This document shows positions 4,193 to 12,198 of a stretch of DNA of 30,241 bases, one piece after another. Position 1 is the stretch's first letter, and every line of letters starts with the position of its first letter. The stretch covers positions 1-30,241 of the forward strand of contig CALGDE010000005.1 in the NCBI GenBank assembly GCA_937883785.1, written 5' to 3'. The translations under genes and the position numbers were made by a program. The notes beneath the pieces were generated by a model, which saw only the letters and a program-made list of their open reading frames with translations, made no database searches and was not told the DNA's origin. The DNA is from an uncultured cyanobacterium. Its GTDB lineage: Bacteria; Cyanobacteriota; Cyanobacteriia; CACIAM-69d.

Positions 4193-4459
4193 CTAAGCTT
4201 CAGCCTTACTCGCAGTTTTCACCTGTTCAAAAATATTAGCCTTTTCCAAAATGCTGCGAACTGTATCAGTGGGCTGGGCACCCTGCTGCAAACGACGCAC
4301 GATCGCGGGCACTTCTAGGCGCGTCTCATCAGTGCGAGGGTTGTAATATCCCAGCTCCTCCAGGGGGCGACCGTCACGGCGGGAGGTGCTTTGGGCAGCG
4401 ACGATACGGTAGCTAACCTCGCGTTTTTTTCCGAAGCGCTTAAGGCGAATCTTAACCAT
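4193..4459 (-). CDS. rpsP: 30S ribosomal protein S16
   Basis: 88 aa, [43 protein letters not shown]..., canonical S16. ATG start. Confidence 0.95.
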
Positions 4460-4568
4460 TACTTAGGTGTTGAAGGCGGTATAAACAAATTGACAGACAA
4501 CCATAATACTCCGTCCTGTTCTTTTTCCCCACCGTTCTCTACGGAAAAATGCTGCAAGACAGTGGGCG

Positions 4569-6119
4569 CTACTGTGAGTCCTGTAGGCTAACCAAATCTG
4601 ACAGCAGGTTATTCAAGCTGCCGCGCACTTCAATGCCGTTCACCTTCTCAGCGATGCGCTCTAGCACTTCCATTTCTTTAAGGCGCATGGCCATGGGGTT
4701 GTTTTCCATGACTCGCGCTGTGTTCAACATACTGCGGGTGGCGGCGGTTTCTTCTCGACGGCGGATTACGTTGGCTTGGGCGGATTTTTCCGCTTCCACC
4801 ACCTGGGCCAAAATGGTTTTCATTTCGCCGGGCAGAATGATGTCCTTGACCCCCACTGAGGCGATCGCCACGCCATATTCCTCGGCTTTGGGCTGAATGT
4901 ACTGCAACACTTCCCCATCGATCGCCCCTTTGTCCTCCAGCAATTCATCGAGGGTCTTGGTGCCGATCGCCCCGCGTAACGCAAACTGTAGCTCTTTGTA
5001 GAGATACTCCTGCACGTTTTTCAAGGACGACAGCGCCAAATTGGGATCGGTAATGCGATAGCCAGTGGTGAGGTTTAGGCGCAGAGCCACCTTATCCTTA
5101 GTCAGGATTTCTTGCCCCGACACCTCCAAAACTTGCAGACGTAGGTCAACAACCTCGGTCTTCATAGAGCGTCCCACGGACCACCAGCTATGCCAGCCGG
5201 GCTCGAGAGTCTCCGCTAAGGTGCCCGATTCGTAAAACAAACCTACGTGTTGTGGCGCCACTTCGATCGCCGTCACCAAAGACATTGCCATGCGTTTTAC
5301 GGGGTCGCGTCCCAGAATTAATTCCTTGATTTGGCGATCCGTTAGCTGGGGCTGGTCTTGGGTGTTAATCGCCTCAATGGTCACCCCTTTCCAAAACAGT
5401 CGACGGCTTCCCGGCGGCAGAATATCAATCACGTTGCCCTGGTCGCGCACGATCGCAATTTCCGTTTCGGACAGGGTGGCGATTTCGCAATATTCTTCGA
5501 CAAATTCGGGATGATTGTCGATCAAATTTTCCGTATCTTTGACGGTCAAAATCCCCCCTAGACGGCGACTACGCTGCATATGCAACTCTTGGTTAACGTT
5601 CCAGAATGCATATCTGCCTGGGGTAAGCAATTGTAAAAAATTGCCGTCACGGTAAAGCAATTCCACTTCATCTTCCTGTACGTTGACAAACTGGATAGCG
5701 GGACTTAGCCCTTGACGATGCTGAATTTGAGATACCAGGTTGGTCGAGATTTCTAGGGTGTCGTCCAGGTTAAACCGATGCACCGTAACCGGGTTGGCTC
5801 GATTCCACCCGCGCCAGAATGCCGCCGTTTCGTCCCGCTCCACTACGTACCACTGCAACGGCGTCTTCACCAATGCCGCTTCGTTGTAGCCCGTGCGCAC
5901 AATTTCGCAGTGTTCGGAAAAGGCGTCTCCATGCTCTTGGAGCAAAAACTCCAGGTTGCGCAGGGTTAGCCGCGATTCCTGCACATCAAAAACCTGCACG
6001 TTCCAGCGGCGACCAATGAAGCGGTGGATTCCGGGGTTCAAAATCTGCTTGAAGTCACTGCGGCGGAAGAGCAAACCGCGCTCAGTGGGCTTGATGTAAA
6101 AGGTTTTGAAGAAGAACAT
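4569..6119 (-). CDS. SPFH/band-7 (stomatin/prohibitin-like) protein with a long N-terminal region of four degenerate internal repeats
   Basis: The C-terminal 250 aa is a clear SPFH domain (VVDLRLQVLEV...LRGAIGTKTLDELLEDKGAIDGEVLQYIQPKAEEYGVAIASVGVKDIILPGEM...). The track ORF begins at 6200 with TTG. I prefer the in-frame ATG at 6117-6119 (MFFFKTFYIK), which also avoids overlap with the non-coding repeat array. Confidence 0.8.
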   Translation of the reverse strand: MFFFKTFYIKPTERGLLFRRSDFKQILNPGIHRFIGRRWNVQVFDVQESRLTLRNLEFLLQEHGDAFSEHCEIVRTGYNEAALVKTPLQWYVVERDETAAFWRGWNRANPVTVHRFNLDDTLEISTNLVSQIQHRQGLSPAIQFVNVQEDEVELLYRDGNFLQLLTPGRYAFWNVNQELHMQRSRRLGGILTVKDTENLIDNHPEFVEEYCEIATLSETEIAIVRDQGNVIDILPPGSRRLFWKGVTIEAINTQDQPQLTDRQIKELILGRDPVKRMAMSLVTAIEVAPQHVGLFYESGTLAETLEPGWHSWWSVGRSMKTEVVDLRLQVLEVSGQEILTKDKVALRLNLTTGYRITDPNLALSSLKNVQEYLYKELQFALRGAIGTKTLDELLEDKGAIDGEVLQYIQPKAEEYGVAIASVGVKDIILPGEMKTILAQVVEAEKSAQANVIRRREETAATRSMLNTARVMENNPMAMRLKEMEVLERIAEKVNGIEVRGSLNNLLSDLVSLQDSQ

Positions 6120-6424
6120 GGGAGCAGGAGTCAACAAAAAAATTTTGAAAGGGATGAAGCGATCGCCCCAAACGGAGCCGCAACGGGCGATCACGGTCAA
6201 AGCTCAGGAGAACGGCTGTTTCGCCCGGTAAGCCATAGCAAGCTACGGACAAACCAAAGCTGAAAGAGACCGACTTGTAAACAATGACGGGCTAATCGCG
6301 CGGGTCACTTTTCCGATGCCTACCGCTTCCATTTCCGCCGTTTAACATTGCCGCTCCCGTAGGTTTGGCATTGCTATTCCATTGGATTTGGTGGCGGGTG
6401 GCTCGAGGCGATCGCTCCAGTCCC

Positions 6425-6520
6425 AAAAAACGCGGAGTCGAACCGCAACGCATTTCTGCGTTTTGCCATAGCTCGTTCCGAAGACGAGTGACTTTCCAGT
6501 AGAAAGTCGGGTTAAACCTT
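6425..6520 (-). other. tRNA-like 3' part in module A: hairpin, anticodon-like arm (loop CUUCGGA, anticodon UCG), long variable arm, T-arm GCGG-TTCGACT-CCGC, then a U-run
   Basis: The minus strand reads ...CTCGT CTTCGGA ACGAG CTATGGCAAAACGCAGAAATGCGTT GCGGTTCGACTCCGC GTTTTTTGGG. It has C32, U33 and a purine at 37 like a real anticodon loop. I could not find a pairing 5' acceptor strand. Confidence 0.4.
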
Positions 6521-6535
6521 TTCAGGGTTTGGGGT

Positions 6536-6609
6536 TTAAAAGTGTAGGACTCGAACCTACTACCAATAGATTAAGAATCTATCGCTCTACCAAATGAGCT
6601 AACTTTTGG
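6536..6609 (-). tRNA. tRNA-Lys(CUU)-like gene, module A position 1
   Basis: The minus strand folds with canonical numbering: CAAAAGT TA GCTC-ATTTGGTA-GAGC G ATAGA-TTCTTAA-TCTAT TGGTA GTAGG-TTCGAGT-CCTAC ACTTTTA A. The D-arm and variable loop resemble bacterial tRNA-Lys. The acceptor stem is A/U-rich with a C1:A72 mismatch and CCA is not encoded. Confidence 0.5.
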
Positions 6610-6613
6610 GTTG

Positions 6614-6684
6614 TGGCGGCCAATACGGGAGTCGAACCCGTGTTTCTCGGGCAAAGCCCAGGTGGAACCATTCCACAAAAGAGA
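6614..6684 (-). pseudogene. Defective tRNA-like gene, module A position 2
   Basis: It ends ...ACGGG-TTCGACT-CCCGT ATTGGCC G CCA (T-arm, 3' acceptor strand, encoded CCA). The 5' part (TCTCTTT TG TGGAATGGTTCCACC...) does not pair with the 3' acceptor strand and no anticodon arm is recognisable. Confidence 0.35.
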
Positions 6685-7159
6685 CAGCGCAAACCCTTGG
6701 CATACGCAGGCGCACACAGTGCCGCGCACCGAGTAGGCATACGGAACCAACTCGCAAAGGGTTGTATGACTCTCCCTTCAAACCGTTTAGATCAGCCATG
6801 GCTGTCAATATTCTAAGCTCGGTTTTTGTGAGAGGCGCTGGTTTAAAAATTCTGTTATTTCCCGATGGTCAGTAGGGAGTAGGGATGGAGCGATCGCCCC
6901 AAACGGAGCCATAACGGGCGATCGCGGTCAAAGCTCAGGAGTGCGGCTGTTTCGCCCGGTAAGCCACAGCCAAGCTACGGACAAACCAAAGCTGAAAGAG
7001 ACCGACTCGTAAACAATGACGGGGCGATCGCACGGGTCACTTTTCCGTTGCCCCCGTCCCGTCCCCGCCGGTCCAGCATTACCGCTCCCGTAGGATTGGC
7101 GCTGCTATTCCTTTGGATTTGGTAACGGTGGGCTCGGGGCGATCGCTCCAGTCCCAAAA

Positions 7160-7237
7160 AATGCGGAGTCGAACCGCAACGCATTTCTGCGTTTTGCCAA
7201 TAGCTTGCGTGACAGGCAAGTGCCACCGAAGTGACGT
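7160..7237 (-). other. tRNA-like 3' part in module B: anticodon-like arm CTTGC-CUGUCAC-GCAAG (anticodon GUC), long variable arm, T-arm, U-run
   Basis: Same architecture as in modules A and C, but the anticodon-like stem-loop has a different sequence with compensatory stem changes, and a different upstream hairpin (GTCAC-TTCG-GTGGC). Confidence 0.4.
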
Positions 7238-7324
7238 TGGTTAAAAGACAGGACTTGAACCTGCACGGGCTTTACGCCCAATAGAACCTGAATCTATCGC
7301 CTCTACCAATTTGGCTACTTTTGT
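7238..7324 (-). tRNA. Type-II tRNA-Leu(CAG)-like gene, module B position 1
   Basis: The minus strand reads ACAAAAG TA GCC-AAATTGGTAGA-GGC G ATAGA-TTCAGGT-TCTAT TGGGCGTAAAGCCCGT (long variable arm) GCAGG-TTCAAGT-CCTGT CTTTTAA... The D-arm, anticodon loop and variable arm resemble bacterial tRNA-Leu(CAG). The acceptor stem is irregular, with mismatches at its base. Confidence 0.45.
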
Positions 7325-7400
7325 TGGTTCTCGATGCAGGAGTCGAACCTGCGTCAACTGGCAACTTAAGCCAGCGCGTCACCCGCTGCGCCAATCGAGA
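7325..7400 (-). tRNA. Canonical 76-nt class-I tRNA with anticodon AAG (unusual), a Pro-like D-arm, A73 and encoded CCA, module B position 2
   Basis: Minus strand: TCTCGAT TG GCGC-AGCGGGTGA-CGCG C CTGGC-TTAAGTT-GCCAG TTGAC GCAGG-TTCGACT-CCTGC ATCGAGA A CCA. The acceptor stem is a perfect 7 bp, the T-loop is TTCGACT, and it directly abuts B1 with a 0-1 nt spacer. Confidence 0.55.
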
Positions 7401-7807
7401 GATGTGAACACTTGGAATACGCAGGGGCAATGGATAGCGCCGCGCACCGACCGAGCATACAGAACCCAAGTCATAAAATGCTGCACGGTCACTATTCTAA
7501 GGATTTAAATGGTGGCGTAAAAATTTTGAGAGGGATGGAGCGATCGCCCCAAACGGAGCCGCAACGGGCGATCGCGGTCAAAGCTCAGGAGTACGGCTGT
7601 TTCGCCCGGTAAGCCACAGCCAAGCTACGGACAAATCAAAGCTGAAAGAGACCGACTCGTAAACAATGACGGGGCGATCGCGCGGGTCACTTTTCCGTTG
7701 CCTGCCGCCGCCATACTCGCCGGTCTAGCATTGCCACCCCCGAAGGATTGGCGCTGCTATCCCTTTGGATTTGGTGACGGTGGGCTCGGGGCGATCGCTC
7801 CAGTCCC

Positions 7808-7895
7808 AAAAAATGCGGAGTCGAACCGCAACGCATTTCTGCGTTTTGCCAGGGTCTCGTTTAAAAGACGAGTCAAACCTTTTCAGGGTTTGGGT
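7808..7895 (-). other. tRNA-like 3' part in module C: anticodon-like arm CTCGT-CUUUUAA-ACGAG (anticodon UUU), long variable arm, T-arm, U-run
   Basis: Same architecture as modules A and B. The upstream hairpin AAACC-CTGAAAA-GGTTT is shared with module A. Confidence 0.4.
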
Positions 7896-7970
7896 TGGTT
7901 AAAAGCGCAGGAATCGAACCTGCGAATGACAGAACCAAAATCTGTTGCCTTACCGCTTGGCTAGCTTTTG
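7896..7970 (-). tRNA. tRNA-Gln(UUG)-like gene with A73 and encoded CCA, module C position 1
   Basis: Minus strand: CAAAAGC TA GCC-AAGCGGTAA-GGC A ACAGA-TTTTGGT-TCTGT CATTC GCAGG-TTCGATT-CCTGC GCTTTTA A CCA. The D-arm and variable loop match those of bacterial tRNA-Gln as I remember them. The acceptor stem is A/U-rich with a C1:A72 mismatch. Confidence 0.55.
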
Positions 7971-7972
7971 GG

Positions 7973-8043
7973 ATCTCGATACGGGAATCGAACCCGTGAA
8001 TGCTGGATCCTTCACCAGTGCCTTACCGCTTGGCTAATCGAGA
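7973..8043 (-). pseudogene. Defective tRNA-like gene (4-bp anticodon stem with 8-nt loop), module C position 2
   Basis: Minus strand: TCTCGAT TA GCC-AAGCGGTAA-GGC A CTGG-TGAAGGAT-CCAG CATTC ACGGG-TTCGATT-CCCGT ATCGAGA T. The acceptor stem is the same as B2 and the D-arm and variable loop are Gln-like, but the anticodon arm is aberrant and there is no CCA. Confidence 0.35.
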
Positions 8044-8155
8044 AATGCAAACACTTGGAATACGCAGGAGCAATGGATAGCGCCGCGCACCGACCGGGCA
8101 CACAGAACCCAAGTCAAAAATGCTGCACGCCGATTATTCTAACGAGGACATTTCC

Positions 8156-8566
8156 TCAGTTGTTCTCCTCTGGCGCTGGCACTTCTTCCGCGCGGTAGAA
8201 CACAAACTGAGTTGCGACACCGAGGCTTTCCACCTCATAGCTCGGCAGCTGCCCCGACAAAAAATCTGGCAATAGCGAGCTCGCCGTTAGCGTGGTTTTG
8301 TAATGGCTTACCACGCCTAAATTGGTCCGCTCAGTACCCGACTCAATCAGCCCCTTAAGCTGGGGTCTCAACTCCGCCACCACATTGCGACACTGCTCCT
8401 GAAGGTTAATTCCGAAGGTATTGGATAACTCAGAGCACGTTTCCGTCTGCAACTTCTCCACTAACTTGTGGCTCGCCTCCTCCGCGTAGGCTTCCGGCGA
8501 TGGATTCGTTAGTGCCAACCCCCCGCCCACTGCCACCAACGCCACCAAGCCAGCAATCAATTTCAT
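8156..8566 (-). CDS. Small secreted or membrane-anchored hypothetical protein (possibly the cyanobacterial DUF4359 family)
   Basis: N-terminal hydrophobic signal (MKLIAGLVALVAVGGGLALT). The track ORF starts with TTG at 8569; the ATG at 8564-8566 is preferred. Confidence 0.55.
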   Translation of the reverse strand: MKLIAGLVALVAVGGGLALTNPSPEAYAEEASHKLVEKLQTETCSELSNTFGINLQEQCRNVVAELRPQLKGLIESGTERTNLGVVSHYKTTLTASSLLPDFLSGQLPSYEVESLGVATQFVFYRAEEVPAPEENN

Positions 8567-8817
8567 CAATCACTCCCCAAAAATTGTCACAACATTACAA
8601 TCCCTGCATTTCTAATCTATCCAACTCAATGACCCCGGCTTTTTTTCGCAACTTAATGGGATTGATGTTGGGCGATCGTGTTACCCTAGTTCGGCTAATT
8701 CACAAATCGCACACCCAAGATTTCGGGTTTAGGCAGTGGCATTCGGGACTTTTTTACCCACGCTACAACGCTAAAAACAACTTGGGTGGAGGCTAAAACC
8801 CGAAAAGGAGAAAAATA

Positions 8818-10566: not shown

Positions 10567-12198
10567 ATGGCTGACTCCATTCTTAATTTAAAAAATAAGT
10601 TGCGGGGATTATCAGTTGAAACCCAGGCGATCGCCCAGAAATTACACAGCGCTGACCGTCACTACTTAGCCCTATTGGGAAAAACCGCCCGGCAGCAATT
10701 GATCCTAGCTTGCTATCAGGTCTGTACAACGCAATACCCTGAAGAGTTCTTGGATCTAACTCCAGAACAAAAGCAAACCCTACAAAACAAAGTAAAAGCG
10801 TTAGGACTTGAGTTGCAGCAAAATCTATTGGGGGTTTTGGACTCGGCCTTGGACAAACAGCCAAAAAATCCCGACTCCTTTCAAGAATTTATAATCAGCA
10901 GCTTATTTTCCAACGCCAAAATTTCCCGGAAGCGCCGTAGGAACAGAAAAGGTAAGGCTAAGAAAGGCAGTGATTTTGATGGTGGCGACTTCGATGGCGA
11001 TAGCGACTTAGGCGAAAATAATAGAACCTTAGTCGTTTTAAGCGACGAAATTGCCTCAGAAGAACTGTCGGAAACGGGACTGTCTCCGGAGCGTCTAGCG
11101 GAAGCGCTAGCCAATGCCCTTGAGTCGGTTATGGGCGAAGATTCAGATGAAGATGGCAGCGATGAAAGTAAAAAAGATAATGATCCTAAAGGCTTAAATG
11201 ACGAAGAAGGTGAGGAGAAAAGAAACGAAAATAATGAAGATATCGAAGCAGAAAATATTGACGAAAACTTCGAGGAAGGTCCGGTAAAAGTTGGCGCCCT
11301 AGATGAATTTATAGCGGAAGAAAAAAACGTTTCATCAGAGGATTTTACGGACGAAATCTACGATCGCGACGACGAAGTTAATTCAGAGGGTGATCAGCAA
11401 GATTTAGAGACTCTGGAATCGGAGCAAGAGTTGGGGGATTTGGAGAAGGATCGTGAAGGAAGTGAGGAGACTGAGGGCGATCGCGATGCCAATCAGGACC
11501 CGGACAATACCTCCTCCAGCAGCGACGTTAGTAGCAGCTTTCTAGGGGAATATTTTGCAGAAAAGGGTCCCGAAGGAAATGCTGGGGACGAGAAAAACGG
11601 TGCCGATGGGAATGAAGTCGCCTCGATTGCCAGCAAGAATCAACCCTTGGTTATTCAGCCGAAATCAGAAAGTACTGGATTAAGCACCTTGGGGCTGGCA
11701 AGCTTAAGTTCATCGTTGCCGGACACTCCGCCGGTGGACATTACCAAAAGTGAAGTACCTTTTGACGTTATCCAGTGGCAGCGATCGTGGGAGCGTTTAG
11801 TGTTGTCCAGCCTGCAAAAAACCTCTTACCGTACCAACCGGCTTCTAAGGACCAGCAAGGCCATTCCCGAGCCCCTCGCCAATCCATTTATTGAAGGCGA
11901 CCTCTCCCTCAGCCGCGAGTCGTCTTCAAAAACTCCAAACTTACTCGCCCTAACCATTGAGCCCACGAAAGCCCCTCCCTTTGGCGATCGCCCGACTCCG
12001 ATGCGTGTGGTGGCGGTACACCTCAACTTAAGCGACCTGGAGCTGGTTAACCCTGAGTTGCGGCGGCGATCGCTCAAGATTCGCAAACTGTTTAGCCAGT
12101 TAGAGACCTTAAACCAGCAGCATCAGGATATTCAGAAAAAGCTCAATATTGCTCAAGCCGACATGGAATGGCGCAGCAGCTGGTCTGACGATAGCTAA
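10567..12198 (+). CDS. Hypothetical protein with structured N- and C-terminal regions separated by a roughly 250-aa extremely acidic (D/E/S-rich) low-complexity linker
   Basis: 543-aa ORF with an ATG start and no recognisable domain. The linker runs approximately residues 140-390; it is preceded by a basic patch (RKRRRNRKGKAKKG). Confidence 0.6.
   Translation: MADSILNLKNKLRGLSVETQAIAQKLHSADRHYLALLGKTARQQLILACYQVCTTQYPEEFLDLTPEQKQTLQNKVKALGLELQQNLLGVLDSALDKQPKNPDSFQEFIISSLFSNAKISRKRRRNRKGKAKKGSDFDGGDFDGDSDLGENNRTLVVLSDEIASEELSETGLSPERLAEALANALESVMGEDSDEDGSDESKKDNDPKGLNDEEGEEKRNENNEDIEAENIDENFEEGPVKVGALDEFIAEEKNVSSEDFTDEIYDRDDEVNSEGDQQDLETLESEQELGDLEKDREGSEETEGDRDANQDPDNTSSSSDVSSSFLGEYFAEKGPEGNAGDEKNGADGNEVASIASKNQPLVIQPKSESTGLSTLGLASLSSSLPDTPPVDITKSEVPFDVIQWQRSWERLVLSSLQKTSYRTNRLLRTSKAIPEPLANPFIEGDLSLSRESSSKTPNLLALTIEPTKAPPFGDRPTPMRVVAVHLNLSDLELVNPELRRRSLKIRKLFSQLETLNQQHQDIQKKLNIAQADMEWRSSWSDDS

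Follow-up and report, generated by a model that had tools for sequence, protein, structure and literature searches.

What is the partial tRNA-like element that recurs between two genes of an uncultured cyanobacterium, and does its anticodon-like loop carry any meaning? Three tandem modules lie on the minus strand of the DNA analysed here (the window, a stretch of 30,241 nt covering positions 1 to 30,241 of contig CALGDE010000005.1), between a DUF4359 gene (8156-8569) and a slipin gene of the SPFH (Band 7) type (4569-6119, minus strand): module C (8155-7511), module B (7510-6851) and module A (6850-6125). Every module follows the same order, from a TAGAAT -10-like box through a leader of about 90 nt, a first and a second tRNA-like domain and a third element to a final domain of about 275-280 nt. 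An earlier, sequence-only reading singled out the third element, whose anticodon-like hairpin bears a different triplet in each module, and proposed that selection maintains a tRNA-like fold with a module-specific anticodon. The context is wider than that reading had considered, as the third element is one domain of a unit of about 650 nt that is tied to the slipin gene. The element is under selection as a structure; further, we give about even odds to the reading in which it forms the 3′ domain, derived from tRNA, of a composite and structured RNA unit that does not code for protein, and in which it neither decodes nor serves as a tRNA half or as a decoy whose anticodon has meaning.

All module features are on the minus strand. 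When re-read from the sequence, the stems, loops and coordinates originally proposed for the third elements were correct. In particular, the element of module A (6421-6535) contains a hairpin H1 (AAACC-CUGAAAA-GGUUU, 6514-6530), an extra hairpin (GACUUUC-UACU-GGAAAGUC, 6490-6508), the anticodon-like hairpin H2 (CUCGU-CUUCGGA-ACGAG, 6472-6488), a hairpin H3 (AACGC-AGAAAU-GCGUU, 6447-6462) that is joined to H2 by a linker with UGGCA, and a T-arm (GCGG-UUCGACU-CCGC, 6432-6446) that is followed by G, a run of six U (6425-6430) and GGGAC. The element of module B (7151-7238) has a first hairpin GUCAC-UUCG-GUGGC (7222-7235), H2 with a compensated stem (CUUGC-CUGUCAC-GCAAG, 7204-7220), H3 (7178-7193) and the T-arm (7163-7177), then A and U6 (7156-7161); that of module C (7804-7895) has H1 (7875-7891), H2 (CUCGU-CUUUUAA-ACGAG, 7856-7872), H3 (7830-7845) and the T-arm (7815-7829), also followed by A and U6 (7808-7813). 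These assignments come from the sequence, its fold, a helix table and pair counts, together with a terminator-like site for B and an ARAGORN call at an 85% threshold for C. H3, the T-arm and U6 are identical in all three modules, and the whole sequence downstream of H2 is nearly so. The statement that each module first has a hairpin needs amending, because the hairpins are not homologous: A and C carry H1, while B lacks it and opens with the counterpart of A's extra hairpin. The H2 stem is indeed compensated, with two pairs changed on both sides (C-G to U-A and U-A to C-G), but this amounts to a single evolutionary event, which module B has in common with an A-like module of a sister genome (L001). 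The folding check supported the stems: 100% of cells pair in the seven window-clade copies, versus 21-43% when the partners are slid.

Measured against a tRNA, the element is incomplete. Its T-loop has the canonical UUCRANY form, as UUCGACU in nine modules of the family described below and as UUCAACU in the homologous locus L006, on a T-stem of 4 bp, not 5. A 7-nt H2 loop with U33 and a purine at position 37 is present in the three window copies and is not conserved among orthologs. The earlier observation that no 5′ acceptor strand pairs with the 3′ end is largely right, with the qualification that the minimum-energy folds of A and C contain a CCC(U)GAAAA/UUUUU(U)GGG pairing, which competes with H1 and is not retained in the homologous locus L012. 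Modules A, C and L006 allow an acceptor-like CCCUGAAAA/UUUUUUGGG pairing, which is weakened in L012 and absent from B; it competes with the conserved H1 hairpin, and the third element lacks the conserved 7-bp acceptor stem of a canonical tRNA. There is no D-arm in the element: a 7-bp or 5-bp hairpin takes its place in A and B, nothing does in C, and a UGGYA motif stands 3′ of H2 instead. The Rfam tRNA model (RF00005) matched no third element even at E ≤ 10, and ARAGORN called none at its default settings; at the 85% threshold, it called only the elements of C and L006, as D-armless tRNAs. The derivation from tRNA is argued from the T-arm, the extra arm, the D-loop-like motif and a tail that is like the acceptor 3′ strand of tRNA-like 2.

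The wider family was recovered by following slipin orthologs, as direct scans with DNA patterns were nearly empty. A pattern of H3 plus T-arm matched the sister metagenome-assembled genome L001 alone in the genome collection; the leader pattern found the L006 contig or nothing in the metagenome and viral collections; and BLAST of a module against phage and plasmid collections returned generic tRNA similarity over about 60 nt, giving no support to a phage or plasmid origin. In total, there are 16 homologous modules across 8 distinct genome or metagenome lineages, window included, mostly on metagenome-assembled genomes or metagenome contigs. Beyond the window's three, 13 units stand upstream of, and co-oriented with, a slipin gene of about 510 aa: two each in L001, L009/10/11 (beside CPSase and phycobilisome genes) and L019, at least two in L012, and one each in L006/7/8, L014, L015, L016 (Spirulina sp. 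SIO3F2) and L020.

The unit and the slipin gene are inherited together. The slipins with modules, from 7 other lineages, are 56-87% identical to the window's, and a unit is present at every ortholog of at least 56% identity for which upstream DNA was available; modules are absent upstream of two orthologs with 52-54% identity (Calothrix NIES-2100 and Acaryochloris thomasi). As far as the contigs show, the neighbour genes around module and slipin differ among lineages; the RNA unit and the slipin gene travel together. Moreover, modules and slipin are both absent from the DUF4359-rpsP site of L002-L005, where the DUF4359 gene is 72% identical: compared with window 4193-8569, DUF4359 is directly followed by rpsP and the block of about 3.6 kb is missing. 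As this block lies elsewhere in other lineages, it relocates as a unit. Between the last long domain and the slipin start codon (ATG) lie 31 nt in the window and about 56 nt in L009, the two loci for which the gap was measured, and this is probably too short for a separate slipin promoter.

Across this family, the structure of the third element is maintained while its sequence changes, and the pairing of H1, H2 and H3 is kept through compensatory changes across 15 modules. H1 occurs in 14 of the 16 modules, with stems AAACC/GGUUU, AAGCC/GGUUU, GUCC/GGAC, GCCCG/CGGGC and GCUCG/CGAGC. H2 is found everywhere, with stems CUCGU/ACGAG, CUUGC/GCAAG, GGUGC/GCACC and AGUGC/GCACU, and H3 varies between AACGC/GCGUU, GGCGC/GCGCU and GAAGC/GCUUC under tri-, tetra- or hexaloops. 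The T-arm behaves differently: its 15-mer is exact in nine modules (the window's three, one in L001, two in L012, one in L014 and two in L019), although the slipins of the T-arm-bearing lineages are merely 58-87% identical. It carries a single R57 transition in L006, is degenerate in the second module of L009, and is absent from five modules (the C-like module of L001, the first of L009, and those of L015, L016 and L020). Ten modules have an intact T-arm, and in nine of them a UGG(C/U)A sequence, equal to the G18-G19-N-A21 sequence of a D-loop, lies beside H3 or the T-arm. The position of the element within the unit is conserved across lineages. Thus, the claim that a tRNA-like fold is maintained holds in the form of a conserved, folded, tRNA-derived piece, with an exact or near-exact T-arm and compensated H1-H3.

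The flanking domains are structured as well. The leader (6690-6800, 7401-7486 and 8044-8130 in A, B and C) forms a three-way junction with a 7-bp closing stem and a nearly invariant hairpin with the core GGGUUCUGYAURCCC, and RNAalifold finds compensatory change in 12 of its 25 pairs (10 sequences). Together with their TAGAAT boxes, the leaders span 6690-6815 in A (box at 6810-6815), 7401-7499 in B (7494-7499) and 8044-8141 in C (8136-8141); these regions were defined by alignment and RNAalifold, the boxes of A and C being -10-like by sequence and that of B coming from a promoter scan. At a very relaxed threshold, ARAGORN calls the leader tRNA-like in some modules. In a Spirulina-like clade, the leader comes after an extended -10 box (TGTAGTAT) and one further 5′ hairpin (L015 3290-3330, L016 3320-3380, L020 1820-1880), and this additional hairpin of L016 resembles a T-arm minihelix (GCACCG-GGG-UUCAAAU-CCC-UG-CGGUGC). 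Kissing or complementary pairings among the anticodon loops, the loops of H1 and H2 and the invariant leader loop were considered and rejected, as the matches found by eye are 3-5 nt long and do not covary in orthologs.

The long 3′ domain (6151-6424 in A, 6882-7155 in B and 7532-7807 in C; from alignment and RNAalifold, plus a fold for B) has a HIP1-rich closing stem of about 19 bp and two arms. The B copy folds with -170 kcal/mol (z = -5.8), compensatory change affects 20 of 66 pairs by RNAalifold, and the window's closing stem GGAGCGAUCGCC/GGCGAUCGCUCC becomes GGGGUGGUCAUG/CAUGGCCGCUCC in L012. The domain can be aligned across the window, L001, L006, L009 and L012, partly to L014, and poorly to L015 and L016. 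An independent miniature inverted-repeat transposable element is not a suitable description, since the domain is alignable and covarying and in the window occurs inside modules only; nor is it coding, as copies differ by 1-2 nt indels and share no conserved open reading frame. The domain may be a substrate of RNase III or belong to the 5′ untranslated region of the slipin mRNA. Searched against Rfam with both gathering and E-value cut-offs, the window and 8 loci returned tRNA and no other family, and no description of the unit turned up in full-text literature searches or in Rfam. Overall, the unit is a candidate new RNA family that is associated with slipin genes, comprises several covarying domains and is absent from Rfam.

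If the third element is not a domain of such a unit, it might instead be the plain intrinsic terminator of a small tRNA operon, with a T-arm likeness that arose by chance and with other hairpins that belong to a 3′ external transcribed spacer. In the window, the T-arms of A, B and C are all called as terminator-like, with a G+C-rich hairpin adjoining a U tract as in an intrinsic terminator. The lineages of the window, L001, L006 and L012, and no others, have a tract of U5-U6 after the T-arm, while in L015, L016 and L020 a U5 tract follows H2 instead. However, the hairpins are modest (the T-arm has 4-5 bp and -7.1 kcal/mol, and H2 of L015 and L016 has -5.5 kcal/mol), L014 and L019 have the exact T-arm with no U tract and with AACCUUCU-type tails, a terminator has no need of an exactly conserved canonical T-loop, and the conserved, structured domain of about 280 nt comes after the element, within the same unit. 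A plain terminator is therefore unlikely in our estimation. The suggestion of a terminator-tRNA hybrid fares better in part, as it describes the window lineage, where U6 follows the T-arm, and fails as a conserved feature of the family.

Somewhat less probable is that the element is a decaying third tRNA, a functionless pseudogene retained between functional parts and homogenised by gene conversion of the tandem copies. Such decay would account for the D-armless tRNA that ARAGORN sees at relaxed settings in module C and L006, for acceptor-like strands (AAAAGGU/AUUUUUU) that resemble those of tRNA-like 2, for the replacement or loss of the element in five modules, and for the near identity of the parts downstream of H2 in the window copies. 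It would not account for a T-arm that remains exact where the slipins are 58-60% identical to the window's and the adjacent sequence is unalignable, nor for the compensatory changes that maintain H1, H2 and H3.

The meaning of the anticodon-like loops is best judged together with the two near-complete tRNA-like domains of each module, of which ARAGORN and Rfam call five of the six in the window. In module B, tRNA-like 1 (7325-7400) has the anticodon AAG, the acceptor UCUCGAU and an encoded A-CCA, and tRNA-like 2 (7239-7324) has a class II shape and the anticodon CAG. In module C, tRNA-like 1 (7971-8043) has an 8-nt anticodon loop, UGAAGGAU, which is UGCAGAAU in the L006 ortholog, and tRNA-like 2 (7896-7970) has the anticodon UUG, replaced by GUG in L006. 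In module A, tRNA-like 2 (6536-6608; 65.6 bits with the Rfam tRNA model) has the anticodon CUU and the acceptor CAAAAGU/ACUUUUA, and tRNA-like 1 (6617-6685) is the uncalled sixth, with a below-threshold score of 21.9 bits (29.8 bits for its L012 ortholog); this domain is degenerate, with a 6-bp hairpin replacing the D-arm and a 3-nt anticodon loop, and retains an intact T-arm. The two domains have constant bodies and acceptor stems among copies: tRNA-like 1 has the acceptor UCUCGAU, and tRNA-like 2 has CAAAAGN with a C1xA72 mismatch, followed by A-CCA in B and C and by AACCCC in A. CCA is encoded in most copies of both. Between module C and L006, the bodies are 97-99% identical, compared with 87-90% for the neighbouring proteins.

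By comparison, ortholog anticodons differ (UUG/GUG, CAG/UAG/CAU, GUU/CCU and UCC/CUU, in addition to the 8-nt loops above). Anticodon positions changed in 14 of 43 cases, versus 151 of 1000 other positions, over 14 pairs that are not independent of one another (odds ratio 2.7, Fisher p = 0.005). Some anticodon loops have 8 nt, some have G33, and those of A-type tRNA-like 1 have 3-4 nt. These features fit tRNA-likes 1 and 2 that are not decoders and that would need to be recognised as tRNA by processing enzymes or by other factors that bind tRNA, whatever their anticodon. tRNA finders, which would mis-annotate these domains as Lys, Leu, Gln, His, Gly, Met, Trp and other tRNAs, over-call odd-anticodon tRNA genes in these genomes.

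The third-element loops bear on the proposal that anticodons deliberately differ by module, with the element acting as a functional tRNA-like or anticodon-stem-loop decoy that baits a nuclease or toxin, or as a codon-specific regulator. The three window H2 loops have C32, U33 and a purine at 37 above a compensated stem; the H1 loops are more anticodon-like than those of H2 and fit CU-NNN-A-N in 10 of 14 modules; anticodon triplets of the tRNA-likes change faster than the bodies; and several ancient module types are kept side by side. The family, however, speaks against it. H2 loops range over CUUCGGA, CCUCGGA, CUUUUAA, CUUGACA, CUGUCAC, UGAAUU, GCGA, CUUGAAA, CUCAUAA, UACAAAA, UAAAAAA and UUGUA, thus over 4-7 nt, where CCUCGGA lacks U33, CUUGACA lacks R37 and GCGA is a tetraloop. 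Loops of such lengths, often without U33 or R37, are not anticodons. Further, H2 type is independent of module type, as the L001 A-like module carries the B-type H2 and so differs from window A, and third elements are replaced or lack the T-arm in five modules. Some copies of tRNA-like 1 have loops of 3-4 nt or 8 nt, the excess of anticodon changes is predicted by relaxed constraint with no need for diversifying selection, and no nuclease or toxin gene accompanies the modules consistently. A decoy is accordingly improbable, more so than a decaying tRNA. In the homologs, the stems are compensated and the loop length and U33/R37 are not kept; the H2 "anticodon" is a free loop, and per-module anticodons under selection are not supported.

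Genes of toxin-antitoxin types do often lie just downstream of slipin (L006 9062-9397, L015 5632-7295, L016 5629-9429 and L020 5883-6539). The types are PIN, SocA/Panacea, HigB, HicB, XisH/XisI and Gp49, all absent from the window, and their presence is probably incidental.

Linkage to slipin raises the alternative that the tRNA-like RNAs, third element included, are partners or cargo of a slipin assembly, in a ribonucleoprotein loosely like vault RNA with MVP or Y RNA with Ro60. The tight co-inheritance across unrelated neighbourhoods invites this idea, as does the protein itself: the slipin (516 aa) has no transmembrane segment, and its AlphaFold2 model (pLDDT 83.7) shows an N-terminal part with four beta-rich units, as well as an SPFH domain and a long helix. 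MVP has an SPFH domain and vaults carry small RNAs (PMC12280208), an analogy that we offer as speculation. Yet no RNA-binding domain was detected in the slipin, many slipin orthologs come without the RNA, and co-transcription explains the linkage equally well. We consider such a particle quite improbable, below even the decoy. Last, we rate two origins as very improbable, namely the remnant of a mobile-element attachment site, in which a tRNA 3′ end was duplicated, and a split tRNA whose 3′ half would be the element: partial tRNA 3′ parts beside tRNA genes are typical of integration scars, but no integrase or mobile-element gene is among the 20 window open reading frames searched against Pfam, the element is not a copy of the adjacent tRNA-like 2 3′ end, its position in the unit is conserved, its stem-loops are already complete, and the window search for a 5′ strand found none, the only complements of the 3′ tail being the element's own opposite strand.

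We return to the third element as the tRNA-derived 3′ domain of the composite RNA, for which the following mechanism is proposed. One to three units stand directly upstream of a soluble slipin gene, in the same orientation, and are inherited with it. RNase P and the 3′ tRNA-processing enzymes would recognise both tRNA-like domains and cleave the precursor, which would yield the leader as an RNA of its own, a pair of tRNA-shaped RNAs and a downstream RNA that consists of the third element and the long domain and may run on into the slipin mRNA. Within the third element, H1 and H2 would serve as structural hairpins with unconstrained loops, and the invariant T-arm and the nearby UGG(C/U)A, like G18-G19 of a D-loop, would most likely form a tRNA-elbow-like knot. 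In the window lineage, the T-arm hairpin and U6 may additionally act as a weak intrinsic terminator or attenuator that limits read-through at each module. Two options raised in the sequence-only reading, a terminator-tRNA hybrid and a processing mimic, come close to this mechanism.

Several points weigh against it. Promoters, processing sites and termination are all inferred from sequence features, and a slipin promoter could sit inside the long domain, which would make the modules separate genes and not a leader. In L014 and L019, no U-run comes after the T-arm, so termination is not the conserved role of the T-arm, and the five modules that lack it mean that the T-arm is dispensable in at least some units. 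As the T-arm is invariant, its pairing has no covariation to support it; the sole pointer to an elbow is the UGGYA motif, whose position relative to H3 differs between clades. Moreover, the covariation counts come from 7-15 related sequences among which paralogs are not independent, and tandem paralogs, in a sample of 16 modules and 8 lineages, are subject to gene conversion.

Two further observations concern the locus and its surroundings. Compared with the window (6125-8155), the sister genome L001 (2560-3930) has two modules instead of three, and its C-type module has a wholly different third element with no H3 or T-arm; together with the B-type H2 in its A-type module, this points to unequal crossing-over or recombination between modules. 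The window itself is a cyanobacterial chromosome fragment with abundant HIP1 (GCGATCGC) palindromes and ordinary genes, among them rpsB, tsf, rpsP, a KhpA-like gene, PhoH, RNase R/II and LepA. After tsf, a 543-aa open reading frame (10567-12198, plus strand) has no Pfam match; its position is kept in L002-L007, where the frames have 535-553 aa and also no Pfam hits.

To our knowledge, non-decoding tRNA-shaped RNAs are rare in bacteria, and the known cases, tmRNA and YrlA, each revealed new biology. Here, strong purifying selection acts on the tRNA mimics and on an element with an invariant T-arm while anticodons drift, and the co-inherited slipin belongs to the widespread, poorly understood SPFH scaffold proteins. 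If the processed leader is real, it would be a case of bacterial tRNA punctuation that controls a protein gene; if the RNAs work with slipin, a prokaryotic SPFH assembly with an RNA partner would be described for the first time. A bolder possibility, which we also rate as unlikely, is that the unit of about 650 nt is a new class of large composite RNA that couples slipin expression to the state of tRNA processing or translation, or that forms a slipin ribonucleoprotein, and that its two CCA-bearing, anticodon-independent tRNA mimics are more than processing signals.

The third element can be compared with several known systems, beginning with class II tRNA (RF00005). It has the T-loop UUCRACU, an extra arm that immediately precedes the T-arm, a 5-bp stem with a 7-nt loop at the place of the anticodon arm, UGGYA in the manner of D-loop G18-G19, and a tail like the acceptor 3′ strand of tRNA-like 2. 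In contrast to class II tRNA, it has no conserved acceptor stem, D-arm or CCA, its T-stem is one pair short, a linker of 9-10 nt separates the anticodon-like and extra arms, and the tRNA covariance model is silent.

tRNA operons may end in a 3′ external transcribed spacer or terminator, for example in E. coli glyW-cysT-leuZ. The third element likewise stands directly 3′ of the last tRNA-shaped gene and consists of hairpins, including a hairpin with a U tract in the window lineage; unlike such spacers, its hairpin is an exactly conserved T-arm that is kept even where the U tract is gone, with a conserved, structured 280-nt domain and a protein gene further downstream. Transcripts shared by tRNAs and mRNAs, and tRNA punctuation, are known from the E. 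coli thrU-tyrU-glyT-thrT-tufB operon and from mitochondrial transcripts. The unit has the same layout, with tRNA-shaped units that are upstream of and co-oriented with a protein gene and that are likely processing signals, but its anticodon loops are non-conserved and sometimes impossible, and it possesses a dedicated leader and a long 3′ domain.

The closest likeness in kind is to YrlA (RF02553), tmRNA, the 3′ tRNA-like structures of plant viruses and mascRNA, where a T-arm or elbow mimic is built into a larger RNA and the anticodon function is lost; like those domains, the third element is probably recognised by enzymes of tRNA processing. With the YrlA model, the score reaches 20.8 bits, against a gathering cut-off of 69, over a tRNA-like T-arm only; no TROVE/Ro60 (rsr) gene, and no reverse transcriptase gene, is among the 20 window open reading frames searched against Pfam; and no tmRNA was called. 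What sets the unit apart from the YrlA and tmRNA class is that it is tied to a slipin gene and that its T-arm-bearing element stands in tandem with two near-complete tRNA-like domains.

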